Source of the DNA: a phage
Sequence record: PZ386969.1
Strand: one strand, 5' to 3'
Length of the DNA stretch: 64,000 nt
The notes below the pieces were generated by a model. It had not been told where the DNA came from and made no database searches. It saw only the letters and a program-made list of their open reading frames with translations. The translations under genes were made by a program, and so were the position numbers. Below, piece after piece: positions 38,601-56,025 of this stretch (position 1 is its first letter; the number at the start of each line of letters is the position of its first letter).

Positions 38601-40439
38601 GCCATTTGCGTTCTTCACGCTGATCAGCTTGTAACCATCATGGTTCCCAAGTTGTGCGCTGGCCGCCGCAGTAAACGTCACAGTCTCGGTGGCTTCGGTA
38701 ACAGTCTTGGTCTTGATCGTCGCTGTGGTGCGGACCATCAATGCCAACAGGTTGATAGACTGGTTGGCATACCCCGCACCCAGGGAAATCTGCAGTGCTG
38801 AACCAACCGGAGTACCAGCCAGGGACAGTCCCGAAGAGATATCAAACTGAGCTGCAGTGCCATCTGCCTTCGCTGCGGAGTACAGTGAAAACTCAGGGCT
38901 GAAGCTGTAACCCAGAGGAGCAGAGATTGAGCCTGCACCAGCGGCGTTCAACGTGATCTTGTTTGACCGCAGGACGGTGTAGTTGATGTCGATGGTGCCT
39001 GTAGGTGCTAGAGTCTTCACACCAAATACAGGCAGAGGGAAGATCAGGTCAATTGCTGAACTCTGGCTGAACTGATTGGACTCCAGTTCGCAGGAGAACA
39101 TGGTTGTGCCGCTTTCTTCGTATGCAACTTTGGTAACAGTACCCATGTCCCCAGTCACAACCAGGTCGCGCATATACAGACGGAATTCAGTACCGGAGCG
39201 CTCTGCCGAAATCAGCAGGGCGGTGGCCTGCACATCGCTGGATGCGTTCAGGAACTTGTAGCGGATTGTGCGGGAGACAACCGGAACCCCTTTGGAGTTC
39301 TTGGACACCAGATAGTTGCCAGTCGAAACAGCCACAGGGTTGTTGTTCAGGATATCAGTGTCACGGGCTTTGTCAATTATGACCAGCTCTTCGCCGAGGT
39401 TTTCGATACGACGACCACGAACGTAGGAAATGCCTGGCTTCATAACAGCCACGAATTTGCTTTCATCACCACCTTCAGCCGGAGTGTATACGCCACCGTT
39501 GTTGTTCTGTTTCAGATGTTCGCGTAGGTCGATCTGGTGAGTAGAGACGTTGTAGTCACCATTGGTCTCATAGGTACGCTGAGCCATGGCGTCTTCGAGG
39601 ATGTTGTATGTTGACTGGGTGACCATGGACTGAATGCGACCGTCTTTCACCTTCGCCAGTTCGACGAAGTCGGCCACTTCTTCATCATAACCGTAGCGAG
39701 ACAACACGAGGTCGACGCGCAGGCGATGCGCACCAGGGGCTTTAGAGTTCGGAGTACCCTGAGCATTGGAGAACAGACTTTCATCTTCTGCTTCAGTCAC
39801 GATTGTTTCTGTAACTTTGAAGCCAATGCGGTGAGATGTAGAGTTCGATGCGTTGTCTACGATCAAAGTGGTTGGTTCAACATCCAGGAACATACCACGA
39901 ACGAAATAAACACCCTTTGTCATGCGAGCGACAATCGAACCGCCAACAGTATCGGCCACACCATAGCCGACACGGATGAAGTTATCGTTCACGTCATAGG
40001 TGTTGAAGTATAGATTGTCACCAGCTTCGAAACCGTCTGAACTACCACTCTCAGTCATCTCTAAGATGGCATACATTGTATCCGGCTCAGCTGGATAACG
40101 TTCCAAGGACAGGACGCGTGCTTTCGCATTGTTGTCCTTGCCCAGAACATAGAGTTCGGAGATACCTTCCAGATCAGTGAACTCACTACCGCCAGCCAGA
40201 GTGAACTTCATGGACACAGCAGTGTTGGTGATCGTTAGGCCGCCGGGGATAACCATTGAACCGTCTTTGAACAGATGGTTGCCAAGTTTCTCCAGTTGAT
40301 CCTGGAAGATGGTCTGCATCTGGTTCAGTTCACGCGTCTGAACTTTGATAGGTGCCGGACGGAATAGGATGCGCGAAAAACGCTTCTCTGGATTCCAGTC
40401 ATCCCAATATGGGCGGCGGTTGAGGTTCATTTCTTGCAT
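35601..40439 (-). CDS. giant virion structural protein (1612 aa), function unknown
   Basis: Continuous ORF; start moved from TTG 40487 to ATG MQEMNLN with GGAG RBS; late motif ACTAAATATC upstream; Ser/Thr/Asn/Gly-rich. Confidence 0.7.
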   Translation of the reverse strand: MQEMNLNRRPYWDDWNPEKRFSRILFRPAPIKVQTRELNQMQTIFQDQLEKLGNHLFKDGSMVIPGGLTITNTAVSMKFTLAGGSEFTDLEGISELYVLGKDNNAKARVLSLERYPAEPDTMYAILEMTESGSSDGFEAGDNLYFNTYDVNDNFIRVGYGVADTVGGSIVARMTKGVYFVRGMFLDVEPTTLIVDNASNSTSHRIGFKVTETIVTEAEDESLFSNAQGTPNSKAPGAHRLRVDLVLSRYGYDEEVADFVELAKVKDGRIQSMVTQSTYNILEDAMAQRTYETNGDYNVSTHQIDLREHLKQNNNGGVYTPAEGGDESKFVAVMKPGISYVRGRRIENLGEELVIIDKARDTDILNNNPVAVSTGNYLVSKNSKGVPVVSRTIRYKFLNASSDVQATALLISAERSGTEFRLYMRDLVVTGDMGTVTKVAYEESGTTMFSCELESNQFSQSSAIDLIFPLPVFGVKTLAPTGTIDINYTVLRSNKITLNAAGAGSISAPLGYSFSPEFSLYSAAKADGTAAQFDISSGLSLAGTPVGSALQISLGAGYANQSINLLALMVRTTATIKTKTVTEATETVTFTAAASAQLGNHDGYKLISVKNANGADVTSNFTLDGGQRDAAYYLSNLISSTGAISGTFTVVYQYFAHSSGDFFTADSYSSINYPDIPNYVSSSSGTVYGLADSLDFRPKITSGASDTDMVRPNTAIILDAEYYLPRIDAVYLADNGVFNVARGVSSNNLASPAIPDNGMRLYELMIPPYTANIDDIQIRTIDNRRYTMRDIGKLETRISNVEYYTSLSQLESSAMSQQVFDPITGNPRFKNGIAADPFKDFRLIDDLSADWVGSIDTDNGRLRPFVQQNAIDLTPVGWNNVQDGMVVCNYTREISVRQDYATTTINVNPYAVFNWEGFLKLNPTTDYWFENYYVTPRVINETINTRGAIKEGSVYGTWRTVSVSERVWEPHGAGGVWWGYRYRTTVSTRDVTTYTYTDKTTTTLTGEQIVETQVIPYMRKTNINFEATGLRPFTRVYPFFSGRDVSAYCTPNGGVLGGALNTDANGNIKGVFAVPQNETIKFNTGDNVFRLTDSPVDSKSADDTLTNAEAVHKSFGKKQGIQKTYVNTRVLGYTATKSTENKTETVEVAKWKDPIAQSFMVATNIGGEYIEGIEVFFSTKSRDIPITLEIREMSNGLPATTVVTRKTLNPSEVSISTDSSVPTMFKFDYPVYLQAQTEFAIVLLANTQDYNAYIAEMGKKNLLTNEFIAKQPYTGVFFTSSNGTTWTPNQTADMKFRVYRCNFSAGSNIVTFDAKVGPKIRPLGLNTVKCVNGSSTVTVYAPGHGLTAGESVTLSGLTGGCGFTPEQLNAQHTVTDATFTTFKFVLSSNADSDGQIGGEAASFLGNYLVDMFYASVTNSALEGSVLKLEYRYRDATSNSFSDWVEFESDTDVSLETEGIYRQVGDFQVRATMTRNESNVYTAPMIDGDDFTIIFNTYGVDPFEDVFSYVTKDIGFDNPCTTLKQYFGAMLPSQSSMTVQVKLLRAGQEMDNVAWETVAPTSPLVNDGSTFFEYEYDKTVDSTNPFVGLKIRLLVRGNRIAPPSFKDFRLIALA

Positions 40440-40481
40440 TTTGATGCTCCATCGATAGGTGCCATTATAGAGATATTTAGT

Positions 40482-40492
40482 ATACAACCAAC
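40482..40492 (-). promoter_or_regulatory. late promoter motif ACTAAATATCT upstream of giant structural gene
   Basis: Motif about 45 nt before ATG 40439. Confidence 0.45.
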
Positions 40493-40643
40493 CGAGGAAT
40501 AGAAAGAAATAAGCCCGAAGGGGCTTTGATTATCTTTCTGTGGTTATGGTCATGGATTCGAGACCTCTGCCATTCATGGTAGATGGTATTCAATTAGGTA
40601 TGTTTAATATATCAGGTCAGACTATTACCTTAACTGCTGTATC

Positions 40644-40681
40644 GATTAGGGTAATGCAAACAGTAAACTCTATATAAAAAG
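40644..40681. repeat. 3'-flank repeat shared by tailspike cassettes (copy 1)
   Basis: AGGGTAATGCAAACAGTAAACTCTATATAA aligns with 45503-45535. Confidence 0.55.
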
Positions 40682-40696
40682 TATTATTAATAAGTA

Positions 40697-40727
40697 AAAA
40701 CAACCCCATAGAAGTGGGGTTGTTTTT
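40697..40727 (-). terminator. terminator after tailspike 1
   Basis: Stem CAACCCCA/TGGGGTTG followed by T5. Confidence 0.6.
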
Positions 40728-40740
40728 AAGTGATTATTAC

Positions 40741-42657
40741 TTACATAACAACTGCGGCAGATATGTATCCTGAATCTTGATACGATCCAGAAAGGTCAAA
40801 AACTTCTAAGTTAAAAGAGTCAGGGGATGTACTTACGACATTAATTACTAATTTCCCTCCGCTAGTGGTATTGCCAACACTGCATAAAACAGCATAAGCA
40901 GAGGAGGGCATAGTATTAGATAGGTTGACGGTATATTTACCGGTCCCGGTTTTAGTTACAGTTGCTCCATCCGCATACACTGACGACCCCGAAATTCCAT
41001 TAAAATTGATCATTGCCCGTGTACATGCACTCGACCTTTTTGCGACGGTAGACCCAATAAATGCGTATTCTTGGGCCTTGTTAATATAAATCTTATTAAC
41101 AGAAGTGTCAGGTACTTGTAAGACGTTATCTATAACAACATTACAGGCTGTTGCTCCAGATACGGTAGAGCATCTATCTATCTCATAATTGTCGATATTA
41201 ATAGCCCTTACAAAACCTATACCCCCAAATGCTGACCAGTTTTGTTTAACAAGAACACCGGAAATACCGGACAGGAAAATAAGATCGCCTGTCGTATCTT
41301 TGCTAAACGTGTTGTTGGTTATTGAAACAGAAGAAGAACGCGGTGAGTGACTATCATCTGCAACATATACCCTGGCTAAAGAAGAAGCAGTATTCTCTTC
41401 AAAGTAGTTACCATCTACCAGTAACTGCTGTGCACCCCCGGCGACAACACCTACGTCATAGCCCGTGTTTGCTTCAAATAGAGAGTCTCTGACTATGAAA
41501 TTTCGTACACTACTTGCAGTACCTGAGTCTCCGATAAGAACACCGTTAACACCATCAAAGAAAGTACAATTATCAACTTTAACTACGTTGATATCTACTT
41601 TTGACGTTTTTACACCATTTGCACATTTAGCGAAATAGCATGAAGTTAGCTCAGCCACCCCGGAAAAATAGTCTGGGGCGTCGTAATGTAAATAAACACC
41701 GTACCGGGCGTTTCTGACAACGCAATCTTGAAGTTTTAGGTACCAAGCCCCTCCGAAATCAAAACCATCAGACGATGAGTCCTGAATATCCAAGAAAAGT
41801 CCAGAAATCTTAGCTCCTATCGCACCACCTTGAACCCGAATGGCGGGTGACGCTAACCCGGTAAACTTAATTACTGAACCTGTTGTTTGGTCATTAACAT
41901 GTCCAAAACTATTACCAACAATACATAGACTATCAGTGGCAGTTATGATTAAAGTAGAGCTTATAAGATAAATACCATCCGGTATGTATAAACTCTTTTT
42001 CGAATCTATTGCTGCCTGAAACGCGGCGGTATCATCGGTCACACCGTCGCCAACAGCCCCGAAGTCCTTGACTGACACCAGGTCTTTATTTTTATCATGT
42101 AGTGTTCGCTTAATGGAGTTGGCCAGAGGTGACTTAAATCCGACCAGACCAGCGCCATCATCAGATGCAAGATTGATTCTCAAGGCTGCATCACCAACAC
42201 TAACCCACTTGTCTAACCCAGTACCTCCAGCACTTTCAGGAGTTGAGCCAGAAGAAACGGTTTTAGGTAACTCACCATCCCAGCGATACTTACCTGTTGT
42301 ATGGGTAAGCAATTCATTTTTAACATTAAGTGTAGCACCATTGTCAAACGACCCAGACAATGTAACGTATTCTTCACGAGATACGGCTAATTCCCCAAGA
42401 TCTACGGAACCAGCTGAATGTACAAGTACGGCATTAGTACCAAGACTTACAGCAGTCACCCCCGAACCAATGTCAGCAGGCAAGGAATAGGCACGCTGAG
42501 TAGCCTTATCATAAATTACTTTGTAACCACCTAAGTCTACACCTACAGCAAAGTAGACTACCTCATTCTGTTTAACACCAAACTTACGGGCAATGGCTTG
42601 CTTATTGGTAAGAATACCAGTAGAGCCTTTACCACCTTGTGAGAACATTTCGTTCAT
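40741..42657 (-). CDS. tailspike-like protein 1 (638 aa)
   Basis: Gly/Ser/Thr/Asn-rich repetitive body; N-proximal module shared with the other two spikes; own terminator. Confidence 0.7.
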   Translation of the reverse strand: MNEMFSQGGKGSTGILTNKQAIARKFGVKQNEVVYFAVGVDLGGYKVIYDKATQRAYSLPADIGSGVTAVSLGTNAVLVHSAGSVDLGELAVSREEYVTLSGSFDNGATLNVKNELLTHTTGKYRWDGELPKTVSSGSTPESAGGTGLDKWVSVGDAALRINLASDDGAGLVGFKSPLANSIKRTLHDKNKDLVSVKDFGAVGDGVTDDTAAFQAAIDSKKSLYIPDGIYLISSTLIITATDSLCIVGNSFGHVNDQTTGSVIKFTGLASPAIRVQGGAIGAKISGLFLDIQDSSSDGFDFGGAWYLKLQDCVVRNARYGVYLHYDAPDYFSGVAELTSCYFAKCANGVKTSKVDINVVKVDNCTFFDGVNGVLIGDSGTASSVRNFIVRDSLFEANTGYDVGVVAGGAQQLLVDGNYFEENTASSLARVYVADDSHSPRSSSVSITNNTFSKDTTGDLIFLSGISGVLVKQNWSAFGGIGFVRAINIDNYEIDRCSTVSGATACNVVIDNVLQVPDTSVNKIYINKAQEYAFIGSTVAKRSSACTRAMINFNGISGSSVYADGATVTKTGTGKYTVNLSNTMPSSAYAVLCSVGNTTSGGKLVINVVSTSPDSFNLEVFDLSGSYQDSGYISAAVVM

Positions 42658-42681
42658 AACGACCTCTTTGTTTTTCTAAGA

Positions 42682-42705
42682 AACCCCGCCGAAGCGGGGT
42701 TAGTT
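42682..42705 (-). terminator. terminator after tailspike 2
   Basis: AACCCCGCCGAAGCGGGGTT, same sequence as at 19981 and 27703. Confidence 0.6.
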
Positions 42706-45210
42706 TTACGAGTAAGCACTCTCGAACTTACAAAACCAGGTTGCTCCTTCATCAGTTGTTGACAACCTAAAAACTTGTGTTCCAGCTGCTGTCAAAGATG
42801 GGGTATTGCTTGCTAATTTAACATTTGCACCAAATGTTATTGTTTTAGATGTTGTTGAACAGACAGCCAAAAGAACCTCAACATAACCAATTAGTGTATT
42901 TGTTAATACTGCTGGAGTTATTGTTACATCTCCTGTAACTGTAGCTGCGATGTAAGATGCGTCTGAAAAGTCAGGCGCATAACTTGCTGTTGGCGTCTCG
43001 AACTTTGGATTTCTTACCAATACAGGAACTCCAACATTTTTCCTGAAAATTGTACTATTGCAAACCATATCATACTCTATACCAACAAAATTCTTAGCTG
43101 CAAGTATGTTAGTAAATGTCTGGTCCGCAGAGTAAATATGAGTTATCAGCCTTGCCACCCATGCTGGTGAGTTTGAGTTTTCACACTCAATGAATGAACA
43201 GTTGATACTACCAACGGCGAATGGCATTAGTGATGCCGTATATGAAGATAGCCCTGCGTCATTAAACGCATTCATATTCACAAACGTCTGGCATTGAGAG
43301 AACGTATTACCGGTGGCTCCACCATCAATAAAAAAGCCAATCCCGCCGTTAATATAACCATCTACAGGATCTAAATTAGCTTTCGCGTAGTCCCATTTTG
43401 ATGGAGAATCTGCAAAACATTGATTGAAGGAATTGTTTATTGAGTTCTGTACAACAAAGCAGCATTTCATCCTTGAGTTCTGGTCAGTGACTGTATCGTC
43501 ATACATGCCCCAGTTGTGCACCTTACTAATTCTGTTATTGCCACCACCACGAACCCAGGTACCAAATCGGAAATAACGACCTTCACCCATACTAACCTGA
43601 TGATCGCTACCTTCAACAATGTGGGCTGTGCTGAGTGGATTAGTTGGTTTTAATACACCAACAGCATAAAACTTCAATAGGTGCACACCCATACCGCCAG
43701 CAATATGGATGCCATGACCATCAATATTGGCTACGTAAATGCCATCTAACTTGTTGGCATAACCATCAGATATTTTAAATCCATTAACAGTTTTTGCACG
43801 GGCATCAATTAAAAGATTGCTAATGTGCCCAGCGTATTGATTACCTGTACCTTTATCACACTTTACAGCATAACCAGATGAGTCTGCTATGAAGTCATCT
43901 GTCAGGTATACCCCACCGAAACCAGCATCAATGCTAACATCTCCGTGAATGTGTAGTGTCGTACTGATAGGATATTTCTTCCCATTCAGCCTGATAACTT
44001 TGCTTACAGTGTTAGGTTGTAGCCAGTCAGGATGGTTAGCAGCACTACTTGGTGCATGTTCTAAACCTGTTAAAGCTGCCGCAGCATCAATCGCATCCTG
44101 TAATGATGGATACATATCCGGGTTGACATTTATAATTTTCTTAAGCGCATTGCCAACAGTACCAGTTTCGTAATCAATTGACTTATCAAAACCTGAAAAA
44201 CCTGCTCCTGTAGGTTTAGCCAATTCTGACTTCAATGAAGCATCACCAACACTAACCCATGCACCTGTTCCAACACCACCGGTTGATGTAGTGGTTGAGT
44301 CAGCGGGGACAACTTTAGGTAGTGCACCCTCCCACGTATAGCACTGACCACCAGCGATGTGCCAAACAGCATCCGTTTCACTATTAACTGTTGCACCTTC
44401 TTCAAAGCTACCAGCAACGAGAGATAAACCTGCTTCTGCAAGTAAACGTCTCCACAATTCTCTGGTATTCGACTCTTGATGAGTAGGTAACAAAGTAACA
44501 GTAATATTACCTGGATTGTACGTTAACTGCCCATTACTAACGGATGAGATGTATATGTTAGAGGGTAATGAAGGTAACCCATATGACTTCTGCTCACTAA
44601 CAGAGTAGACAATCTTTTTACCATTCAATAATTGCGTAGTGTCAGTGCTAAGAATTACTTCACTGTCCTTAACGTTAGTTGCACGAGCGATTTCTTGAAT
44701 ACTTCGGTCAAACAACGGACTGATATTCGGTTGTTTAACAGACATTTCAGCGACTACCCAAACGCCTGCAGTCAGCGCAGTTTGTAAAGACACTTTCCCT
44801 GTCGTGCTGTCATAGGAATATTCAATTTCGGGTGTTTTGTACTCACCACCGATATAAAGAGATTGGACTCCATAATATGTGTAATCAGGAGTGAACTCGG
44901 TTTCACCTCCTATAGCCTGAAACTTATAGATTCGAACCCCGGTTTTATAATCTTCTGGAGACAGAATCTTATCAAACAGACAGAACACAACGTCACCTTT
45001 GGATAATGCGCGTCCGAGATTCAACGTATTTCCATCGATTTCAAAGTTGTCTAACGGAACTTGCATGCCACCGTTGATTGTGACTATACCAGTGACAGGG
45101 TAGAAAGGGAGGGAGATAAACTTCTCTCCACCCGTTGCTGTGTAAGTGTATGGAATCTGGTGCGGAGCTGTTACGACCGCTCCAAAGATGCTCTCGACGT
45201 TTCTGGTCAT
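42706..45210 (-). CDS. tailspike-like protein 2 (834 aa)
   Basis: Shared NVKD[ST]EV ... GGVGxGAW.SVGDA module; start moved to ATG MTRNVE after a late-promoter hairpin. Confidence 0.7.
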   Translation of the reverse strand: MTRNVESIFGAVVTAPHQIPYTYTATGGEKFISLPFYPVTGIVTINGGMQVPLDNFEIDGNTLNLGRALSKGDVVFCLFDKILSPEDYKTGVRIYKFQAIGGETEFTPDYTYYGVQSLYIGGEYKTPEIEYSYDSTTGKVSLQTALTAGVWVVAEMSVKQPNISPLFDRSIQEIARATNVKDSEVILSTDTTQLLNGKKIVYSVSEQKSYGLPSLPSNIYISSVSNGQLTYNPGNITVTLLPTHQESNTRELWRRLLAEAGLSLVAGSFEEGATVNSETDAVWHIAGGQCYTWEGALPKVVPADSTTTSTGGVGTGAWVSVGDASLKSELAKPTGAGFSGFDKSIDYETGTVGNALKKIINVNPDMYPSLQDAIDAAAALTGLEHAPSSAANHPDWLQPNTVSKVIRLNGKKYPISTTLHIHGDVSIDAGFGGVYLTDDFIADSSGYAVKCDKGTGNQYAGHISNLLIDARAKTVNGFKISDGYANKLDGIYVANIDGHGIHIAGGMGVHLLKFYAVGVLKPTNPLSTAHIVEGSDHQVSMGEGRYFRFGTWVRGGGNNRISKVHNWGMYDDTVTDQNSRMKCCFVVQNSINNSFNQCFADSPSKWDYAKANLDPVDGYINGGIGFFIDGGATGNTFSQCQTFVNMNAFNDAGLSSYTASLMPFAVGSINCSFIECENSNSPAWVARLITHIYSADQTFTNILAAKNFVGIEYDMVCNSTIFRKNVGVPVLVRNPKFETPTASYAPDFSDASYIAATVTGDVTITPAVLTNTLIGYVEVLLAVCSTTSKTITFGANVKLASNTPSLTAAGTQVFRLSTTDEGATWFCKFESAYS

Positions 45211-45216
45211 TTGAAG

Positions 45217-45253
45217 ATACCCCATAGAGGATTTGCCAATATGGGGTATTTAG
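45217..45253 (-). promoter_or_regulatory. late promoter CTAAATACCCCAT as 5' arm of hairpin; 3' arm ATGGGGTAT 6 nt before ATG 45210
   Basis: Inverted repeat ATACCCCAT / ATGGGGTAT with 15-nt loop. Confidence 0.55.
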
Positions 45254-45290
45254 TCTGAACTAATAAATTTATGAACAAAGGTATAACAAG

Positions 45291-45314
45291 AACCCCGCCA
45301 AAGCGGGGTTTGAC
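45291..45314 (-). terminator. terminator
   Basis: AACCCCGCCAAAGCGGGGTT followed by TG-rich tract. Confidence 0.5.
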
Positions 45315-45318
45315 ACTC

Positions 45319-45474
45319 CTATTCCAGACACATTTCAAAATGTATACCAACATCACCCCACCCATCATAAACAGACGACCCCGATATTCTTGATCCATCT
45401 ATGTTGGCGAAATAAAAATACGCTGACCCATCATTGATATCACCTATAAAGTTCTTATACCCGTTTGATGACAA
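45319..45474 (-). pseudogene. possible remnant of a tailspike C-terminus (51 codons, TTG start only)
   Basis: Frame reads ...ANIDGSRISGSSVYDGWGDVGIHFEMCLE stop, resembling the C-terminal end of spike 1; lies between a 3'-flank repeat and a terminator. Confidence 0.3.
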
Positions 45475-45490
45475 CCCGAGAGAGAGCCAA

Positions 45491-45540
45491 CAGCATTATC
45501 AATCAGGGTAATGAAAACAGTAAACTCTATATAATAAAAG
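45491..45540. repeat. 3'-flank repeat shared by tailspike cassettes (copy 2)
   Basis: AGGGTAATGAAAACAGTAAACTCTATATAA. Confidence 0.55.
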
Positions 45541-45562
45541 CCCCCAAAATTGGGGGCTTTTT
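45536..45562 (-). terminator. terminator after tailspike 3
   Basis: Stem AGCCCCC/GGGGGCT flanked by A/T runs. Confidence 0.6.
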
Positions 45563-45568
45563 ATTATA

Positions 45569-48500
45569 CTACCAGTAATACCAATCACCTTTTTTACTTC
45601 TGACTAGAATAGAACAATCGGTAACAGCTACTGTAGACACCCCACCAATCCTTATCTCATACAGTTTACTAGGCAATCTTTTCTTAGTTAGAGAGACTTT
45701 AAAATCTGTACCAGTTACAGTGATATATTCCGTCCCATCCTCACTATCTATCTGTAAATCTAGGCCGCTGGGACTTGCTGGGAGCTTAACATAAAGCTGT
45801 TGTTCTGCTGTACTACCAGCAAAATGACCGATAACTGTAGATGTCCACTCACTTAAAGTCAACCCTGAACGCACAAAGTCTACATTGAGCGGTTCCTTAA
45901 TAAGTGCAGCAGGTGCATTGTAATTATGCCCGTTAAGTACATAGTAGTTGCTGCTACCAACCTCTACTGTGTCTGCTGTGCAGTAAGAGTGGAAGGTTTT
46001 TGCGTTATCAAAGCGATATAGACTTCTGATTAGCACACGCTCTTGATTGCTTCTGGTTAAAATGCCACAACCTGCGGAAAGGTGGAGTGTGGAGATGGTA
46101 AGCGTATGACTTTCACTGTTGGCCTTGGATGACAGCAATGACACCTTGGGTTCACCCTCTTGAGTAAAGTCTTTACTATTACCCTCACAGTACATGACCC
46201 CAATGTCCCACGCAGCAGGGTCCATTGTTACTACCCCAGCACCTGCCGTATTCTCAGAGCAAATCACACCAACACTGGTAGACAAACCACGACCTAAGAT
46301 AATACCAGCACCTATTGTATATTTACTCGCATCATCCGTGATTGGGTCATAACCTAGTCCCGTAGACTTATCAGTACCCCATGCACTAATGTGAGGGAAG
46401 TGTGTAGCATTCACATAGGTATCCCCTTGCTCACCTTCTGTTGAATAACCTAATGCCATACCCCTTGCACAGTTGTTTGCATGGAGAGTGCCCATTTGAA
46501 AATACCAGCAAGCAAACATTACAATGCCATATCTATTAGCATTATATGCATAGATGCTACCCATCTCAGATTCTGCACACAGAAGACGTGCATAAAAACC
46601 ATATGATGCAATATCTGCACAGTCTACGTTTAAGCTACCGATTAAGCGTAATCCTCGCACTTGATTCTCTGTATTAGCCACATCCACTGTTGCTGTACCG
46701 ACAGGAAATTTACTAACGCGTACAACAGCTTTTAACGTAGGCCATACGGAGCCAATTGCTTTAATTGTTGCCCCGTTTAGATTCCCACGTAAGTAAGAAG
46801 GTATAACAACCTCATCCGTTACGTGGTAGGTAGAATTCCCATTCAGATTTAATGTACCTGTGGCTATAGCTAGTTTTATAGCAGGTAAACAGTCAAAACT
46901 AGGGTCATTGGGGATTGCACCAAAATTCTCAGGTGAGTGTTCATTAAACCCTGTTAGCTTACCAACGTTAGTCCAAGAAGAGTCTGGGGCAGCACCATAA
47001 CTAACAGGTAGTGTCCCATTGTACTTGTACCAGAACCCATCTGAATGTAGAACAACCTGATATTTATCGGATACATTCCCACCATCACCGAATACACCGC
47101 TCTTTTTGTAAAGAGACAGACTACCGGAATCAATAAGAGAAGAACCTTTCCAGGAGGCTAAACGTTGCTCTAATCCAACAACACCAACTACAAGCCATGC
47201 CCCTGGACCAACACCTCCTGTACCCAATGGGGTAGATTCTGGAGGGACTACTTTGGGTACAGAACCATCCCAACGATATTTAATATCGTTACTCACAACC
47301 AACTCATTCTTGGTATTAACAGTTACACCTGTATCGAATGAACCAGGTAAGGTCACATACTCCTCACGAGATACGGCTAATGCGCCCAGATCAACACTAC
47401 CAGCAGAATGCACAAGTACAGCCGAAGAACTAAGGCTGACTGCCGTGGTTCCAGTCGGTAGCTCTGGAATAAAATATGATCTCTGTGTTACTTTATCATA
47501 GATAACTTTATACCCGCTTAGCACAGCACCAACACTAAAATAAACGACCTCTGTATCTTTAACATTGGTTACACGAGCCACTTCCCGCAAAGTATGATCA
47601 ATTTGATTATAGATGTTTGGTGTTCCATTGATAATTACAACAACTTCATCTTCTGGTTCCAGTTCTTGCGCCAGAGTGATTTTACTGGTTAATGGATCGA
47701 ATGTGAATCCCAGATTTTTATACTGACGACTTCCGTTTATATCAATGGCCGGAACATCATCAACAACGACGTCCAACGTGATTTCGGTTTCACCGCCAAT
47801 CGCTGAACCCCCATTATAGACCCAAGTAATCGTAGAAGAACTAGAACCACCGCCATTACCCAATTGAATAGGAGTATATTCAATCACCTGAAGTTCTGTG
47901 CTGGCTGGCAAAGAAGGACTGAAAGTGATTACATTCCCATCTAGTGAATATTTGGATTCCGCAAGGCGTTTTCCGTCAGCATACACGTCCACGATTGTTG
48001 GTGGAGTATTGAGAGTGACAGTACTTGTTTCAGACGCCAAAATTTTTGTAAAGATTTCACGACTGTAGACACGGCCTTGGCCAAGACCGACGCCGGATGT
48101 AATAATCCAACCTTGTTCAGGTCCAGACCAAGTGAACGTTGCTGATACGTTATCAGTTGTTATAGCCATGTCTTCAGTGGAGCCATACAAATTATTTCCA
48201 GAAGGAGACACGGTCAATGGGTAAGTGGCAAATTTCCCATAAGCATCACAAATAGTAACGGAATCCCCAATACGCGTAGGGGAAGGGAGAACCACTGTAG
48301 ATGCCCCTGTGGTATTATTAATGAGATAGCCTCGCCCTTCAGTGAGCGTTGCCGTAGAGGCATGCGGAAGGACTTCCCAGCGGATGCCACCGCCACCCAG
48401 CGGCAACCAACCACCATTTTCGTAATAACCTTCGAATTCGTCGGAGTCGGCATTGTAGCGAACGGAAGACGGGAGTCCTGCGCTGGCATTACCCTCGGGT

Positions 48501-48622
48501 AAAGTCAGGACAGCATCTGGTCCATGCTCAATCGTACCCGTGTTGAGGACACCAGCCAAAGTAGACTGCTCTTCAGCCGCCAGACCGAGAGGGAAAACAG
48601 GCTGTGTTGGTTTATTAGCCAT
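45569..48622 (-). CDS. tailspike-like protein 3 (1017 aa) with extended N-terminal region
   Basis: Shared module in mid-protein; start moved to ATG MANKPTQ after a late-promoter hairpin. Confidence 0.7.
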   Translation of the reverse strand: MANKPTQPVFPLGLAAEEQSTLAGVLNTGTIEHGPDAVLTLPEGNASAGLPSSVRYNADSDEFEGYYENGGWLPLGGGGIRWEVLPHASTATLTEGRGYLINNTTGASTVVLPSPTRIGDSVTICDAYGKFATYPLTVSPSGNNLYGSTEDMAITTDNVSATFTWSGPEQGWIITSGVGLGQGRVYSREIFTKILASETSTVTLNTPPTIVDVYADGKRLAESKYSLDGNVITFSPSLPASTELQVIEYTPIQLGNGGGSSSSTITWVYNGGSAIGGETEITLDVVVDDVPAIDINGSRQYKNLGFTFDPLTSKITLAQELEPEDEVVVIINGTPNIYNQIDHTLREVARVTNVKDTEVVYFSVGAVLSGYKVIYDKVTQRSYFIPELPTGTTAVSLSSSAVLVHSAGSVDLGALAVSREEYVTLPGSFDTGVTVNTKNELVVSNDIKYRWDGSVPKVVPPESTPLGTGGVGPGAWLVVGVVGLEQRLASWKGSSLIDSGSLSLYKKSGVFGDGGNVSDKYQVVLHSDGFWYKYNGTLPVSYGAAPDSSWTNVGKLTGFNEHSPENFGAIPNDPSFDCLPAIKLAIATGTLNLNGNSTYHVTDEVVIPSYLRGNLNGATIKAIGSVWPTLKAVVRVSKFPVGTATVDVANTENQVRGLRLIGSLNVDCADIASYGFYARLLCAESEMGSIYAYNANRYGIVMFACWYFQMGTLHANNCARGMALGYSTEGEQGDTYVNATHFPHISAWGTDKSTGLGYDPITDDASKYTIGAGIILGRGLSTSVGVICSENTAGAGVVTMDPAAWDIGVMYCEGNSKDFTQEGEPKVSLLSSKANSESHTLTISTLHLSAGCGILTRSNQERVLIRSLYRFDNAKTFHSYCTADTVEVGSSNYYVLNGHNYNAPAALIKEPLNVDFVRSGLTLSEWTSTVIGHFAGSTAEQQLYVKLPASPSGLDLQIDSEDGTEYITVTGTDFKVSLTKKRLPSKLYEIRIGGVSTVAVTDCSILVRSKKGDWYYW

Positions 48623-48625
48623 TTC

Positions 48626-48666
48626 AAATACCCCTAAATGTGTTCGTTTCATCTAGGGGTATTTAG
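48626..48666 (-). promoter_or_regulatory. late promoter CTAAATACCCCTA as 5' arm of hairpin; 3' arm TAGGGGTATTT 3 nt before ATG 48622
   Basis: Inverted repeat AAATACCCCTA / TAGGGGTATTT with 17-nt loop. Confidence 0.55.
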
Positions 48667-48668
48667 TT

Positions 48669-49859
48669 TTAGAAAGAAGCTACAATAGAATAATCGACCG
48701 AACAAGCAGTTGTTGTATTCGCATTAACAACGGAAACTCTCAATTTACCACCCACCACAGCCCCTGTGAACGTCACTGTACCGCTCGTACTTTTCTGAAC
48801 CAACAACTCCGACTTGATAGTTCCGTCGCGAGTTATGGTTACTCGATATGTATCAACAACGTTACCTGTTCCCCATTGCGCGGTCACCAGTATTTGACAA
48901 AGGTTCACCAAATCAAAATCTGGAAGAGCCGTCGTCCCAGAAGCCGAAACCGTGTAAGAAGACAAATTCGTTTTGGTACGATAAACGGCGTTCCCTAAAC
49001 TATTGTCGACAGAGGTCATCTTGGCATTATACGTTGATACGCTAACTTTATCACTGGAAAGAGAACTGATGCTGTTATCCAGAGATGACATCTTCGTGTT
49101 GTACGTGCTAACCTCGACTTTATTACCCAGAGACGTATTGATATTGGAGATACTCAAATCCAATGACGCCATCTTCGTGTTGTAAGTCGAGGTGTTAACT
49201 TTCCCGTTTAACGATGTGTTGATGTTATTGATTCGGGACTCTAGACTCAGCATATCTGCGTCATACGCTGTCGTTGTCACATATCCATTAAATCGGTTAT
49301 CTGCAAACAACGCATCAAAAAATGCAGTCATTGTCCAATAACGCGCTCCAGAATCTGTTTGTACTGGAATTGAAGTTGGCATCGTTGATCCGGTATACGC
49401 AGACAATCTGGTGAAATCCAAATTGAATTTGTAATATCCGGATGTCAACAACTCCCCAGCCAAACCAGAACCAGGTGGGGTAGTGTCTTCACTGACACCA
49501 TGCTTTCTCAACATGCTCAGGTTAACACCATCTGTCGCTATCGTAGGCTCATCCACGATAGACAGTTTCTTCCCAGCCGGAACAGTCAGGCCGCCGTTGG
49601 CGGTCAACAACGCAACAAAAGTCTTGCTCCCATTGATCGTTTGTTCACCACCGTCGGTGCGGATCACTTTGTTTTTCAGTGTGTCGTAGATATTATCCAC
49701 AGAACGCTTCAGCTCGTATGTCAGATGAGCTGAAGGAGGGAACAACGGATCATCAACAGCGAAATCGTTGACAACATCAGTCTTGCTTATTTTATCGTCA
49801 ACAGAAGAAAGGATTGCATCAATCTGCTGACCTGTGTATCGACTCAGAAAATCGGCCAT
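48669..49859 (-). CDS. tail fibre protein with tandem 20-aa repeats
   Basis: Repeats of the STYNTKM..SISNINTSLGNKVEV type; AAGGAG RBS. Confidence 0.6.
   Translation of the reverse strand: MADFLSRYTGQQIDAILSSVDDKISKTDVVNDFAVDDPLFPPSAHLTYELKRSVDNIYDTLKNKVIRTDGGEQTINGSKTFVALLTANGGLTVPAGKKLSIVDEPTIATDGVNLSMLRKHGVSEDTTPPGSGLAGELLTSGYYKFNLDFTRLSAYTGSTMPTSIPVQTDSGARYWTMTAFFDALFADNRFNGYVTTTAYDADMLSLESRINNINTSLNGKVNTSTYNTKMASLDLSISNINTSLGNKVEVSTYNTKMSSLDNSISSLSSDKVSVSTYNAKMTSVDNSLGNAVYRTKTNLSSYTVSASGTTALPDFDLVNLCQILVTAQWGTGNVVDTYRVTITRDGTIKSELLVQKSTSGTVTFTGAVVGGKLRVSVVNANTTTACSVDYSIVASF
48990..49245 (-). repeat. in-frame tandem repeats (about 60-nt unit, 4 copies) inside the tail fibre gene
   Basis: Protein-level repeats of the STYNTKM..SISNINTSLGNKVEV type. 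Confidence 0.55.
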
Positions 49860-49860
49860 T

Positions 49861-50715
49861 TTAACTCCTTGAACTTTCTAGGAATACAGTAAACCCAGCA
49901 GGATGGAAATGCTGACGGAAGACGCGATCAAACACACCTTCAAAATCAGATACGTTGCCAGGAACTCTTATCACATACGTGAATTCATCATAGTAGTAAT
50001 CGTCACGCATTCCTGTCGCGCCGTCACATTCAAAGTTGTCATCCAGGCCACCAATTTCTTCCTTGGGATAATACACACTCACTGGGCAACCAAAGTAAAT
50101 CCAGAAGAACAATTCAATCGCTTTCTTCGTCCCGCGAATGCGATAAATGTGTTTAAGTAACTTCAACCAGCGTACATGGTCCAGTGTCCGGCGTTCAGTT
50201 CCCTCGACATACACAGAGAGAGTGTCTCCGTCTGAAGTCACCAAACTGTCCGAACCAACTGGCACAAACTTCCCGAACTCCAGGAAGGACTTATCAACCG
50301 TTCTCTGGAATCCAAAATCAGCATACCAATCGTCGATGCGTTCGTTCTTGTCTTCCATTGAGATTAATGGCCGACCGTCCACGTCCAGCAAATCTTCGAA
50401 GTCTAGCGCCATCATGTTCTCAAACGTGCGCGTCAGGAACTTGTCTTCCAAGAAGTCTTTGGCCTCAGTACCTGGCGTCTTGCGCTTCTTGATGTCAATC
50501 AACTGCTCAATAGGAGACTGATCCGTATTTGGGTTCACCCAGCCACCAGTGTCTGCCAGATACGCCAAGATCTCCTCTTCGGTGAATCCCTGCTGGCGGT
50601 ACAACCAGTTGAAGAACGTATCCATAAACTCGATGAATACTGGGAATTCATTCTGGTAAAACAATGGGGTTTCATATTTCACCCCATTGTGTCCGTTATT
50701 AAGATCTTTGGACAT
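49861..50715 (-). CDS. baseplate wedge protein (putative)
   Basis: GGAGG RBS; directly downstream of and overlapping the gp6-like gene; assignment by position only. Confidence 0.45.
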   Translation of the reverse strand: MSKDLNNGHNGVKYETPLFYQNEFPVFIEFMDTFFNWLYRQQGFTEEEILAYLADTGGWVNPNTDQSPIEQLIDIKKRKTPGTEAKDFLEDKFLTRTFENMMALDFEDLLDVDGRPLISMEDKNERIDDWYADFGFQRTVDKSFLEFGKFVPVGSDSLVTSDGDTLSVYVEGTERRTLDHVRWLKLLKHIYRIRGTKKAIELFFWIYFGCPVSVYYPKEEIGGLDDNFECDGATGMRDDYYYDEFTYVIRVPGNVSDFEGVFDRVFRQHFHPAGFTVFLESSRS

Positions 50716-52477
50716 AACGCACCTCCGGCTCCACAGTCACAGCACCGATGCGGAGCACCTGATTCTGTGTGGCCTGAATGTTCTGGTCAAGACCGTCTGG
50801 AGACACAATTATTGTCACACCCTCAGTGTTGTAGTTGGATACTATGATACGCTGGAGTTCAACAACGCCAGTCACATAATCAACCATTCCAACAGCTTGT
50901 ACCAGATATTCCTTGGTCGTGTCTGTTGTACTCACCTTGTACATATTCAGGACACCACTGACGTCGCGTATGTAGTAAGTGAATTCGACCTCGGCCGGAA
51001 GCGGCTTAAACCCACTGATACGCACAGAACCAGACGCAATCGAGCGCCCATAATCGAATGTGAAGCTGTCCAGTACCCCATAGTCTGGCTTGAAATGGCG
51101 CTTATACTTCACAGAAGTGATGTTTGACACTATCGATCTGTCCATGTCGGTGATGGCCGACTGCAACTGCTCTTTATCGAACAGTTCGTCGAATCCTTCT
51201 AGGTTCCCCAAGCCCCAGTTGACAACACCGTTCTTCACGACTGTCTTCAACTGCTCTTCGGTATAGGACGTGGAAGTCGGATCCCAGAACACGCGGGTGG
51301 TGACATCAACATAAGTCAGTTCAGCGTCGACAATCTTGGGTGTGATCGTGCCCACATTGTACTTGTCTAACGTCGCCACGATATCTGCCTTCTCAGCGTC
51401 CGAGAGCGCCTCACCAACAGAAGGTATCACAGCAATGTAAACGTATCCGGAGTCAGGCGGAGAGAGCGTGTCGCCGCCATATGCTTTGGCGCGGGAGACG
51501 TTGGAGAACAGACGCTCGGTCAACACAGCATAATCGACTTCGGCCACTGCCGCACCCTCAGCCTGATAAGCCAGCGGAGCAAGGCGCTTGATGTCCTCAA
51601 TGCTCTCTGGGTCCGCACCGCCGGAAGAACGTTCTGACACCAGCTCAACATCCACAAGGTTGAATCCCCCGATGGAAGACGCGGAGGACAAGGTAGTGAT
51701 GTCATTGCCGTCTGCACCAGCTGTCTCCAGATACTGGAGGTACACGACGTTCCCGTCTTCTACTCGCTTACAGATATACCCATCACCGAATTCGAACGTG
51801 TACATCCCGTCCAACCCCAGCTCAACGAAGTAGAGTTGCGCATACTGGCTCAAATCGAACGGGCTGACATATCGTGAGAAGGTAGACCGCACGTCAGATG
51901 TCTCAGATTCCTGCACCTGCACCACCATATGGTCGATGTCCACGGAAGAAGATGGGATCACATAGGTAGAGATCGCGCTACCTTCCACATCATAGGACTT
52001 GTACAGCCAGTTACCCTGTATGAGTTTGATGTTCTCGAACTTGTAAGAGCCGTCTACAAGAGAGGCGCTCACAGGTTGGTCAACCGTGAAGTTGTAGGAT
52101 TTGCCATCCTTCGCCCCAATGAACATCGCGCGGCGATCCATTATAATCGTGTCCGGAGCCGTGCTGGCGTCATATGGAGTGACTGTGACGTTTGCGTACA
52201 GGTACGCCGCCTGGTAGTTGTGAGGGGTGTACGACAAGAACCCGGCCGCAAGACCGACATTAGAACGCTGTTGAGCAGAGTGAAGATGGCTTTCGCCATT
52301 CAGCATGTTCTGCATGAACCCGATAGAGTTGGCATCCGAGGCCAAGATACGCACGATTGCACTGAGACCAGAACCTTCAAAGTCATAATCCTTGAAAGTT
52401 GGATCAGCTTTCATGCGCTTCTTGATAAGATACTCGAAAGCCCTGACATCGAGTGAAGGGACTGTTTGCGTGGCCAT
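50699..52477 (-). CDS. baseplate wedge protein (gp6 / J-like, putative)
   Basis: 592 aa; start moved from TTG 52528 to ATG MATQTV with GGAGA RBS; late motif GCTAAATATC upstream. Confidence 0.55.
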   Translation of the reverse strand: MATQTVPSLDVRAFEYLIKKRMKADPTFKDYDFEGSGLSAIVRILASDANSIGFMQNMLNGESHLHSAQQRSNVGLAAGFLSYTPHNYQAAYLYANVTVTPYDASTAPDTIIMDRRAMFIGAKDGKSYNFTVDQPVSASLVDGSYKFENIKLIQGNWLYKSYDVEGSAISTYVIPSSSVDIDHMVVQVQESETSDVRSTFSRYVSPFDLSQYAQLYFVELGLDGMYTFEFGDGYICKRVEDGNVVYLQYLETAGADGNDITTLSSASSIGGFNLVDVELVSERSSGGADPESIEDIKRLAPLAYQAEGAAVAEVDYAVLTERLFSNVSRAKAYGGDTLSPPDSGYVYIAVIPSVGEALSDAEKADIVATLDKYNVGTITPKIVDAELTYVDVTTRVFWDPTSTSYTEEQLKTVVKNGVVNWGLGNLEGFDELFDKEQLQSAITDMDRSIVSNITSVKYKRHFKPDYGVLDSFTFDYGRSIASGSVRISGFKPLPAEVEFTYYIRDVSGVLNMYKVSTTDTTKEYLVQAVGMVDYVTGVVELQRIIVSNYNTEGVTIIVSPDGLDQNIQATQNQVLRIGAVTVEPEVRYVQRS

Positions 52478-52515
52478 GATAATCTCCATCACCTGAGTTT
52501 GAATATGGTGTTGAA

Positions 52516-52526
52516 GATATTTAGCC
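52516..52526 (-). promoter_or_regulatory. late promoter motif GCTAAATATCT upstream of gp6-like gene
   Basis: Motif about 40 nt before ATG 52477. Confidence 0.45.
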
Positions 52527-52650
52527 AACGGGAATCAAAACGCTCGCGCGCGTTTAATTTATTCGAATATAACTCGCGAGGGGGCTGACGCCCTCGCTCG
52601 TAACACCGCCCTATGCGGGCAGCACCATTCCACAGCCATGGAGGCTGCTT

Positions 52651-55444: not shown

Positions 55445-55521
55445 GGTCCTGTAGCTCAGTCGGTTAGAGCAGTGAACTCATAATTCATTGGTCATTGGTT
55501 CAAACCCAATCAGGATCACCA
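55445..55521 (+). tRNA. tRNA-Met (CAU)
   Basis: Manual cloverleaf: acceptor GGTCCTG/CAGGATC, D-arm GCTC-AGTCGGTTA-GAGC, anticodon loop CTCATAA, T-arm ATTGG-TTCAAAC-CCAAT, encoded CCA. Confidence 0.8.
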
Positions 55522-55655
55522 TATTGAGGGGCGATAGTTTAATGGATAGCTGTCCGGACAGTGAATCCTCATAGAGAACGGCTGGGCGGCCAAACCCAGC
55601 AGGTGAGGTGAAAAGCCTCAGACCCCGCCAATACAGTTTGTTGTAAAATAAATGT

Positions 55656-55683
55656 TTGTTCAATAAACTTTATATGGTATAGT
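55656..55683 (+). promoter_or_regulatory. sigma70-like promoter TTGTTC-N16-TATAGT upstream of tRNA-Asn
   Basis: -10 ends 9 nt before tRNA 5' end. Confidence 0.4.
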
Positions 55684-55692
55684 GATTTGCAA

Positions 55693-55768
55693 GACGATGT
55701 AGTTCAGTCGGTAGAACGGCGGTCTGTTAAACCGTATGTCGCAGGTTCAAGTCCTGCCATCGTCGCCA
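55693..55768 (+). tRNA. tRNA-Asn (GUU)
   Basis: Acceptor GACGATG/CATCGTC, anticodon loop CTGTTAA, T-arm GCAGG-TTCAAGT-CCTGC, encoded CCA. Confidence 0.8.
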
Positions 55769-56025
55769 GACAATGGGTGTGAACGAAAGTGAATAGGCAT
55801 AAAGTACGCGACCGACAAGCTCCAAGCCTCTGTCCAATAGCCGAACGGAATCCGAAGACGACGATAGTAGCGCCCACCAAATTCAGAGTGTAGAGGCTAC
55901 AGTAGTGCGCACCTCACGGGTTGCTACACCGGACACTCTGATACAAATCTACCGCCGCGTGGATTAGCTGAGGAAGGATGGCCGATGTCCTCGAGCGTGG
56001 CCCAGCACGCAGCGGCAGACCAAAT

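Follow-up and report, generated by a model that had tools for sequence, protein, structure and literature searches.

The region at positions 40,741-48,622 of the window (the whole 64,000-nt stretch of phage DNA analysed, record PZ386969.1) is highly probably the tailspike (tsp) cluster of an Agtrevirus-like Ackermannviridae phage, with the assembly, tsp3 history, exchanges and transcription proposed below taken jointly. The locus is a further member of a well-described Ackermannviridae cluster type. It is notable only for encoding three spikes where four are usual, and for its clearly visible swap points.

Identity and layout of the tailspike cluster

Three successive minus-strand genes encode proteins of 638, 834 and 1017 aa, as the preliminary description had stated (Table 1). 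VriC borders the cluster on one side and the 396-aa and baseplate-wedge genes on the other, as in the Ackermannviridae arrangement; the flank at 48669-52528 contains the 396-aa gene, a Baseplate_wedge gene and a gp6-like gene. This order agrees with the compared clusters of AV101, YX22, LHE287, vB_CECAV_050 and S115. Backbone membership was judged from identity over 12.5 kb to named Agtrevirus-type members, among them coliphages such as AV101, YX22 and LHE287. The identity was 97.7-98.4% to ten relatives, RPN242 through fGh-Ecl02 and ZQ1, which include LHE287, A221, YX22, AV101 and vB_CECAV_050, and 91% to SKML-39 and Ag3. The record of vB_CECAV_050 is classified as Agtrevirus.

The locus had been described as similar to the multi-tailspike array of Ackermannviridae. 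With flanks of about 98% identity and structure matches to TSP4-N, TSP2 and TSP1 of phage CBA120, it is that arrangement itself, one spike short of the usual set in that tsp3 is absent.

Table 1. Features of the tailspike cluster, in window positions.
Feature	Position	Strand	Details and basis
tsp4 leader	48623-48668	minus	CTAAATACCCC motif 48656-48666, then 16-bp hairpin, -21.0 kcal/mol
tsp4	45569-48622	minus	1017 aa; start is the ATG matching PDB 7REJ residue 1
tsp4 anchor + XD1-XD3	~47609-48622	minus	PDB 7REJ/7RFO match
tsp4 TD/Tail_spike_N module	~47138-47608	minus	PF18668
tsp4 receptor-binding beta-helix body (predicted)	45569-47137	minus	AF2 + Foldseek
tsp4-tsp2 spacer	45211-45568	minus	358 nt; chimeric; terminator hairpin 45530-45568; D2 repeat 45489-45537; second hairpin 45291-45310; late-promoter-like motif 45243-45253; RBS hairpin up to ATG 45210
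tsp2	42706-45210	minus	834 aa; start is the ATG matching PDB 6W4Q residue 1
tsp2 XD2-XD3 N-terminus	~44479-45210	minus	PDB 6W4Q match
tsp2 Tail_spike_N module	~44206-44478	minus	PF18668
tsp2 body	42706-44205	minus	boundary from unrelated carrier
tsp2-tsp1 spacer	42658-42705	minus	hairpin AACCCCGCTTCGGCGGGGTT (42682-42701) + RBS; without promoter motif
tsp1	40741-42657	minus	638 aa
tsp1 TD1-TD2 N-terminus	~42163-42657	minus	PDB 4OJ5 match
tsp1 pectate-lyase-like beta-helix body	40741-42162	minus	PF12708
tsp1-VriC spacer	40440-40740	minus	hairpins 40695-40728 and 40511-40526; D2 repeat 40632-40680; left edge assumes VriC ATG at 40439 (deduced, with the 1612-aa VriC of relatives)
VriC (DUF4815)	35601-40487		ORF + Pfam

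N-terminal domains and the shared Tail_spike_N module

The N-terminal domains were assigned from sequence matches to CBA120 structures. TSP4 residues 1-338 match PDB 7REJ/7RFO/7RFV (CBA120 TSP4-N; E 5e-198), corresponding to a predicted N-terminal anchor and gp10-like XD1-XD3. TSP2 residues 1-244 match residues 1-245 of PDB 6W4Q (CBA120 TSP2; E 1.6e-127), corresponding to predicted XD2-XD3, and TSP1 residues 1-217 match residues 1-209 of PDB 4OJ5 (CBA120 TSP1; E 2e-86), corresponding to a predicted TD1-TD2 N-terminus. Against four TSP1s, the N-terminus of the 638-aa protein showed 75-93% identity, and against the TSP3 group 67-72%; the N-termini within that group are 86-97% alike across genera. 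Because it is nearer to the TSP1s, the 638-aa spike was assigned as TSP1 and the absent one as TSP3.

Pfam PF18668 (Tail_spike_N) was found in TSP1, TSP2 and TSP4 above the curated cut-off (E 1e-20 to 2e-22), which bears out the earlier claim of a module common to the three genes. The likeness is strong only between TSP1 and TSP4 (59% identity over 153 aa); the TSP2 module is much weaker (29-34%). The module is also visible at the DNA level, as had been reported, in a repeat between 42307-42456 and 47297-47446 (72% over 150 nt, E 9e-19).

Different nearest relatives of the three bodies

The three C-terminal bodies differ, and each has its own nearest relative. The TSP1 body contains PF12708. 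TSP1 is 97.6% identical to YX22 TSP1 as a protein, tsp1 with its 3' flank (40000-42685) is 97.4% identical to YX22 at the nucleotide level, and 40488-40740 is 100% identical to the tsp1-VriC spacer of YX22.

The AF2 model of the TSP4 body reached a pLDDT of 86, and its best Foldseek matches were tailspike depolymerases. Positions 45570-46976 are 88.9% identical at the nucleotide level to the fibre gene of Kayfunavirus TM1. The C-terminal 473 aa of the TM1 fibre correspond to the tsp4 body module, ungapped up to the stop codon, at 88.5% nucleotide identity.

The tsp2 gene joins an N-terminus with 92-97% nucleotide identity to Agtrevirus tsp2 genes to a body known from tsp4 of YX22 and vB_CECAV_050, which it matches at 96.7% nucleotide identity over 42678-44262, terminator included. 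YX22, whose host is the O2:K1 strain IMT5155, shares two of the bodies. The point near aa 326 at which the TSP2 body begins was set by the unrelated carrier P0068. No match to the TSP2 body was obtained in Pfam, NCBIfam or PDB sequence searches, and its AF2 model, built on a shallow alignment, was poor (pLDDT 51). Beta-helix proteins were reached only by a profile built from distant representatives, so that a beta-helix fold is suggested for TSP2 only transitively. The expectation of beta-helix bodies thus held for TSP1 and TSP4, and for TSP2 only through distant homologues.

Because each body has a different nearest relative, horizontal exchange of these cassettes, as proposed in the preliminary description, is directly evident. 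The conserved Tail_spike_N motif (Y.W.G.LPK...GAW.SVGDA.L) would have served as the junction for body exchanges that put the body known from YX22 tsp4 onto tsp2 and the Kayfunavirus-fibre-type body onto tsp4.

A larger segment of tsp4 has another close relative. Positions 45217-48250, covering the spacer and tsp4 past its anchor, are 95-100% (about 97%) identical at the nucleotide level to the Kuttervirus contig L009; the backbone of this contig is 70-80% identical to the window, and its baseplate genes 64-83%. The tsp4 N-terminus is 94% identical to that of AV101 at the protein level. Position 48250 was considered as the left end of a Kuttervirus import and was dropped, since after the addition of seven more relatives 47500-48300 proved 93-100% identical in nearly all of those compared. 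The left crossover is therefore placeable only between 47500 and 48300.

A chimeric tsp4-tsp2 spacer and the absence of tsp3

The usual fourth spike of Kuttervirus and Agtrevirus phages, TSP3, is absent. The window ORF list contains no ORF between tsp4 and tsp2, where only the spacer lies, and the TSP3 bodies of relatives gave no tblastn match in the window. TSP3 is not universal within Ackermannviridae; phages with three spikes are on record for Kuttervirus and Limestonevirus.

The 5' part of the spacer matches the pre-tsp3 spacer of AV101 and contig L009, and part of the spacer is 95-97% identical to the tsp4 3' spacer of AV101. From the second hairpin through CATATTGG it is identical to the tsp3-upstream spacer of L009. 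Two sites differ from L009 further upstream of the second hairpin, and two differ from AV101 inside the module. In its last 30 nt, which comprise the loop, RBS and start, the spacer agrees fully with the tsp2 leader of AV101 and YX22. On these sequence comparisons, the spacer is a chimera with its crossover within a shared 66-nt terminator/late-promoter module. The exact junction had no match in other public viral, genome or metagenome contigs, and look-ups of the exact spike sequences likewise gave no record.

The most likely history would be homologous recombination with a Kuttervirus-like partner, which brought in tsp4 from its XD/TD part onward together with the 3' spacer. The downstream crossover would have fallen in the module of about 66 nt, of which one copy precedes tsp3 and another tsp2; having used the tsp2 copy, it would therefore have lost tsp3. 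We infer loss of tsp3 rather than gain on the basis of the majority state and of the context of the spacer.

The spacer was also considered as the fossil 3' end of a spike. It contains a 58-codon open frame ending in ...ISGSSVYDGWGDVGIHFEMCLE and, in frame, 24 nt that match the tsp1 C-terminus. This reading is unsupported because tblastn against all phage records found only the AV101 spacer.

Two other accounts of the missing gene were weighed. The phage might have four real spikes, tsp3 having been dropped by an assembler that jumped between the near-identical modules upstream of tsp3 and tsp2. The repeat in which the junction lies is indeed at least 66 nt long, and its two copies are identical in relatives; a collapse would yield exactly such a chimera, a short-read mis-assembly would place the junction exactly there, and the same junction occurs in no other public contig. 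However, the sequence has no ambiguity, LHE287 is independently three-spiked with a different crossover point, three-spike phages are on record as noted, and tsp3 loss was observed experimentally in engineered S117, which makes the artefact unlikely. Slightly less probable again is that three spikes are the older state of the lineage, and that the relatives gained a tsp3 cassette between duplicated promoter modules. A module-bounded cassette is insertable as readily as deletable, and Limestonevirus phages, which belong to the same subfamily, Aglimvirinae, are without tsp3. Against this, the post-tsp4 spacer of about 290 nt is the one that stands ahead of tsp3 in two genera (AV101 and L009), all but one of six Agtrevirus-type relatives compared have four spikes, the TSP3 N-termini are closely alike across genera as given above, and the TSP2 N-terminus here still matches those of relatives with four spikes and with three at 84-92% identity. 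Loss of tsp3 by crossover in the repeated module remains the preferred reading.

Base composition of the cluster

The GC content was 0.429 within the cluster compared to 0.495 outside, with 1-kb windows at 0.405-0.44. GC3 was 0.33-0.35 in the TSP genes (segments 0.25-0.41) and 0.55-0.61 in VriC, the gp6-like gene and the 284-aa wedge gene. The composition is not uniform, with a robust dip in GC and GC3 across the TSP genes; the figure of 32-43% given earlier from single lines overstated this dip.

The dip might be taken to mean that the whole array was recently imported into this phage from a low-GC donor, and the GC3 difference from the neighbouring genes and the near-identity of tsp4 to a Kuttervirus contig would fit this. 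However, similar composition was found in most TSP genes of six Agtrevirus-type relatives and of Kuttervirus S115, conserved N-terminal modules included (the exceptions among the six relatives were three TSP genes at GC 0.47-0.52), and the separate segments of the array have separate donors. Import of the whole array is therefore very improbable, and low GC failed as a sign of recent import. Because the TSP genes of relatives share this composition, the dip is a standing property of a cross-genus TSP gene pool and not of an event here.

Terminators and promoter-like motifs

A GC-rich hairpin follows each of the three tsp stop codons (-23.5, -15.1 and -19.2 kcal/mol), in agreement with the proposal of one terminator per gene. 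The flanks are also repeated as described, with the 49-nt D2 repeat (40632-40680 and 45489-45537, 86%) and three related terminator hairpins. Scanning the region against Rfam yielded sub-threshold matches only, on the terminator hairpin.

The motif CTAAATACCCC followed by a hairpin was found upstream of tsp4 and tsp2, and the window motif scan found none before tsp1, so that the hairpin promoter-like elements noticed at two genes were recovered. The window contains six exact copies and seven with one mismatch, compared to 0.56 expected at one-mismatch tolerance. At five of the seven CTAAATACCCC sites in the window, promoter and RBS pair in the same way, with stems that covary, and the 3' arm of the tsp4 leader hairpin, GGGGTATTT, adjoins the start codon. 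We infer that CTAAATACCCC is a late promoter. According to the CBA120 paper, no late promoter had been identified for this family, and no published CTAAATACCCC late promoter emerged from our literature search. A sigma-70 promoter scan performed no better than on shuffled sequence. Transcription probably starts at the CTAAATACCCC motifs ahead of tsp4 and tsp2, and tsp1 would be transcribed by read-through from tsp2.

The last 100 nt or so of the spacer form a unit of terminator hairpin, CTAAATACCCC and RBS-sequestering hairpin. Most of the 277 Ackermannviridae records that match it retain it at about 96% identity, while backbones differ by 20-40%. Given this conservation and its recurrence ahead of both tsp3 and tsp2, the unit could tentatively be regarded as a portable cassette boundary, and its hairpin may also gate how late structural genes are translated. 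If so, the unit would be a homology block for the gain, loss and moving of whole tailspike genes between genera.

Proposed assembly and significance

The branched assembly, the predicted polysaccharide cleavage and the host specificities are taken over from the CBA120 model and should apply here. TSP4 would anchor to the baseplate via its first ~107 residues and then carry XD1-XD3, TD and the beta-helix body. TSP2 would join TSP4 by an XD2-XD2 contact, and TSP1 would attach via its TD domains to XD3 of TSP4. In CBA120, TSP3 docks on XD3 of TSP2. Each body may recognise and cut a surface polysaccharide of its own, so that the phage would have three host specificities.

The value of the locus is practical and not conceptual. 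Phages of the Ackermannviridae serve in biocontrol and are engineered for it; the spikes that they carry set their host range. The cluster is a clean natural example of processes already proposed: body exchange at the Tail_spike_N motif, a body shift between spike positions (tsp4 to tsp2), and exchange across genera and with podophages. The small addition is a sequence-level account of whole-spike loss via crossover in a repeated terminator/promoter module, which could serve as a homology arm for engineering spike number.

Comparison with known systems

The branched assembly model and TSP exchange have been described previously (PMC11721090, PMC8432352, PMC10791037, PMC11414711). The CBA120 cluster (Kuttervirus; Plattner 2019, Chao 2022, PMC11721090) has the same place between VriC and the baseplate genes and the same N-terminal architecture of TSP4 anchor and XD1-3, TSP2 XD2-3 and TSP1 TD1-2 (E 2e-86 to 5e-198). 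Beta-helix bodies like its own are supported here for TSP1 and TSP4, and for TSP2 through distant homologues. However, it includes tsp3, all three bodies here differ from its own, and it belongs to a different genus with 44.5% GC compared to about 50% here.

AV101 (Agtrevirus, PMC10791037) shares a backbone of ~98% identity and the gene order, but it has four spikes, and none of the four bodies is as here. In the same paper, bodies were also common to prophages and distant lytic phages, and AV101 TSP4 resembled a Kayfunavirus fibre. In Kayfunavirus (T7-like) TM1 and its relatives, a Y.W.G.LPK-type motif lies just upstream of the junction, as it does in TSP4, whereas the N-terminal adaptor of the TM1 fibre is of the T7 gp17 type (PF03906) and not of the anchor/XD type.

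In Limestonevirus clusters and the engineered S117-tsp4-tsp5 (PMC11414711), tsp3 is absent; they show the complex to tolerate TSP3 loss, and tsp3 to be removable by recombination inside the cluster. TSP4 is cut there to its structural N-terminus, whereas TSP4 here keeps its full body. A further Agtrevirus-type phage with three spikes is Escherichia phage LHE287 (PP761450; backbone 98.4%), which has three tsp genes without tsp3 and a tsp2 leader that is likewise a mix of tsp3 type and tsp2 type. Because its tsp4-tsp2 spacer is only 88 nt long, and its crossover point and bodies differ from those here, LHE287 looks like an independent event.

Gene content and identity of the locus

The preliminary description reported three consecutive minus-strand ORFs sharing an N-proximal module. 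All three were present as given, and, with the start codons chosen for them, their first residues line up with residue 1 of the CBA120 (Kuttervirus) proteins whose structures are solved. The common module is shared strongly only by TSP1 and TSP4. The Tail_spike_N family (PF18668) was found in all three spikes above the curated Pfam cut-off, and TSP1 and TSP4 were close (59% identity over 153 aa), whereas TSP2 was only 29–34% identical to the other two. The repeat of the module at the DNA level was recovered between tsp1 and tsp4 at 72% over 150 nt (42307–42456 versus 47297–47446).

The 12.5 kb adjoining the genes on the left was 97.7–98.4% identical to Escherichia phages RPN242, LHE287, A221, YX22, PC3/PH4, and AV101, versus 91% to Ag3 and SKML-39, and the right flank showed the same pattern of relatives and identities. 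Judged by these matches, the window itself belongs to an Ackermannviridae phage. The three genes are flanked by VriC (DUF4815) on one side and by the 396-aa, baseplate-wedge, and gp6-like genes on the other. The mechanically called VriC ORF starts at TTG 40487 and gives 1628 aa; annotations of VriC in relatives give 1612 aa, a length that agrees with a start at ATG 40439 (MQEMNLNRRPYW...).

Coordinates of the tailspike genes, tRNA genes, and promoter-like motif sites
Feature	Position	Strand	Description
tsp1 ORF	40741-42657	minus	638 aa
tsp2 ORF	42706-45210	minus	834 aa
tsp4 ORF	45569-48622	minus	1017 aa
Four tRNA genes	55445-56418	plus	Met-CAT, Asn-GTT, Tyr-GTA, Ser-GCT
CTAAATACCCC sites	14034, 17233, 45243, 48656, 58714/58739, 59209		30-45 nt upstream of start codons

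Domain anatomy and receptor-binding bodies

Residues 1–338 of the 1017-aa protein matched the N-terminal fragment of CBA120 TSP4 (anchor and XD1–XD3; 7REJ, 7RFO) at E 5e-198, and the TD region of 5W6H was matched after the XD part. Residues 1–244 of the 834-aa protein matched CBA120 TSP2 (6W4Q) at E 1.6e-127. The best match of the 638-aa protein was CBA120 TSP1 (4OJ5, E 2e-86), and its first 160 residues were 75–93% identical to the TSP1s of AV101, LHE287, YX22, and fGh-Ecl02 but only 67–72% to those of the TSP3 group, which are 86–97% alike among themselves. Because of these N-terminal matches, the genes were assigned as tsp4, tsp2, and tsp1.

The C-terminal TSP1 body contained a pectate-lyase-like domain (PF12708, Pfam). 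AlphaFold modeled the TSP4 body with confidence (pLDDT 86), and the best Foldseek matches of this model were phage tailspike depolymerases throughout, CBA120 TSP2 among them. The TSP2 body had no sequence match in Pfam, NCBIfam, or PDB and was poorly modeled (pLDDT 51). An exhaustive search tied it through distant homologues to PF12708, the Sf6 tailspike, and beta-1,3-glucanase beta-helices. Its close homologues in E. coli prophages are carried on P22-type head-binding adaptors.

Base composition and mosaic origin

The reported drop in GC was reproduced (0.429 within the region versus 0.495 outside), and GC3 was 0.25–0.41 across all TSP segments versus 0.55–0.61 in the adjacent structural genes. 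Most TSP genes of six Agtrevirus-type relatives and Kuttervirus S115 had GC of 0.39–0.46 and GC3 of 0.27–0.41, the exceptions being TSP1 of vB_CECAV_050 and TSP3 and TSP4 of fGh-Ecl02 (GC 0.47–0.52); backbone GC is 0.50 in Agtrevirus and 0.44–0.45 in Kuttervirus. Therefore, the dip is a standing trait of a TSP gene pool common to the genera. Recent import into this phage was rejected as its cause, since the TSP genes of relatives are mostly equally low.

The stretch 45217–48250, covering tsp4 after its first ~125 codons and the spacer, was 95–100% identical to L009, a Kuttervirus contig in Salmonella assembly GCA_026553415.1, while the baseplate genes of the two phages were 64–83% identical. 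The first ~107 codons of tsp4 (48300–48600) were 92–100% identical to Agtrevirus relatives versus 60–79% to Kuttervirus, and by this comparison are genus-specific. The left crossover could be placed no finer than 47500–48300, because in almost every relative of either genus this XD region is 93–100% identical. The pattern is consistent with an anchor that co-evolves with its own baseplate, the remaining tsp4 circulating freely across genera.

The tsp4 body (aa 545–1017) matched the tail-fibre gene of Kayfunavirus TM1 at 88.5% of nucleotides, ungapped and through the stop codon, and also occurred on many ~39-kb contigs joined to a T7-type adaptor. The tsp2 body with its terminator (42678–44262) matched the tsp4 body of YX22 and vB_CECAV_050 at 96.7% identity; on this evidence, it has changed spike position relative to them. 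Its upstream boundary adjoins the conserved ...GAWVSVGDASL motif. tsp1 and all sequence to its left were 97.4% identical to YX22.

L009 is a phage genome of complete size (157.6 kb) within a bacterial assembly. In it, the 396-aa gene is followed by a gap of 500 nt (L009 7423–7923), and tsp4 is called as 866 aa; probably, the start was mis-called or a frameshift is present, since a full-length gene would be about 1017 aa. Upstream of tsp4, the 396-aa gene of the window (48669–49859; PHROG 3838) has a fibritin-like annotation in LIMEstone1, and its product carries repeated STYNTKM.SLD.SISN motifs. It was 90–98% identical to Kuttervirus over most of 48600–49500 and only 70–74% over 49500–49800; thus, the zone homogenised between genera reaches past the tsp genes.

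Terminators, repeats, and promoter-like motif

A GC-rich hairpin lies 3' of all three genes, in agreement with the terminators proposed earlier, and the repeated flanks correspond to a 49-nt direct repeat (40632–40680 and 45489–45537, 86% identical) immediately 3' of the tsp1 and tsp4 terminator hairpins. In YX22 this element is found after tsp3 and tsp1, and in AV101 and L009 it is found after tsp4.

The hairpin late promoters claimed before two genes correspond to CTAAATACCCC and a hairpin preceding tsp4 and tsp2. The motif occurred in the window six times exactly and seven times when one mismatch was tolerated, against 0.56 expected at that tolerance. At five of the seven sites, GGGGTAT lies 12–60 nt after TAAATACCCC (a chance of about 0.01 per site), with a start codon at most 10 nt further on, and CTAAATACCCC pairs with this RBS-adjacent GGGGTAT. 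The stem covaries past the motif (CCCCTA/TAGGGG, CCCCATA/TATGGGG, CCCCCAT/ATGGGGG). The hairpin at 58714–58749 carries the motif on both strands, pointing at divergent genes. Among 277 matching phage records, from hosts that include Salmonella, Escherichia, Klebsiella, and Dickeya, most preserve the final ~100 nt upstream of tsp2 at about 96% identity. TAAATA is similar to the -10 element of T4 late promoters, and Ackermannviridae encode gp55, gp33, and gp45 homologues. The motif is a candidate late promoter; a literature search found no published definition of it as such. The motif scan of the window found no copy upstream of tsp1, and the tsp2–tsp1 interval is a 48-nt spacer with a hairpin.

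Probable loss of tsp3

In AV101, YX22, vB_CECAV_050, RPN242, fGh-Ecl02, and S115, tsp3 lies between tsp4 and tsp2. Here, this interval is only a 358-nt spacer without tsp3, and the spacer is chimeric. The part running from the tsp4 stop codon as far as CATATTGG is of the tsp4–tsp3 spacer type of L009, and partly also of AV101, including the hairpin AACCCCGCTTTGGCGGGGTT and the CTAAATACCCC motif. The final ~30 nt (loop, GGGGTATC, RBS, ATGACCAGAAAC) are identical to the tsp2 leader of AV101 and YX22 and unlike the tsp3 leader. In four-spike relatives, the tsp3 and tsp2 leaders share a nearly identical ~66-nt block, so a crossover within it deletes tsp3 precisely.

The tsp4–tsp2 junction could instead have been created by the assembler, which we consider improbable; deletion by crossover is the preferred reading. 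One further three-spike relative was found, LHE287. Its leader turns from tsp3-type to tsp2-type elsewhere, and this different switch point suggests an independent event.

The spacer also holds a 58-codon open frame (45330–45500, minus strand, ending ISGSSVYDGWGDVGIHFEMCLE*) and a 24-nt in-frame match to the C-terminal coding sequence of tsp1 (40974–40997). A reading of the frame as a fossil spike 3' end was not supported, since phage records matched it only in the AV101 spacer.

Comparison with known tailspike systems

By analogy with the CBA120 assembly model (PMC11721090), TSP4 would attach to the baseplate by its genus-specific anchor, and TSP2 would join it via XD2. XD3 of TSP4 would be the docking site for TSP1, and XD3 of TSP2 would stay empty. 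The three putative beta-helix bodies would confer three polysaccharide specificities.

The reported tRNA set of CBA120 and its relatives is similar to the four tRNA genes found here. Engineered S117 has been seen to lose tsp3, and the gene is absent from Limestonevirus phages. The earlier interpretation as an exchanged receptor-binding cassette array of the Ackermannviridae multi-tailspike type was right, and the finding is real. What is new is the spike combination of this particular phage and the sequence-level account of tsp3 loss. Both the system and the family are already known, and the cluster occupies the same location as in AV101, YX22, vB_CECAV_050, LHE287, and Kuttervirus S115.
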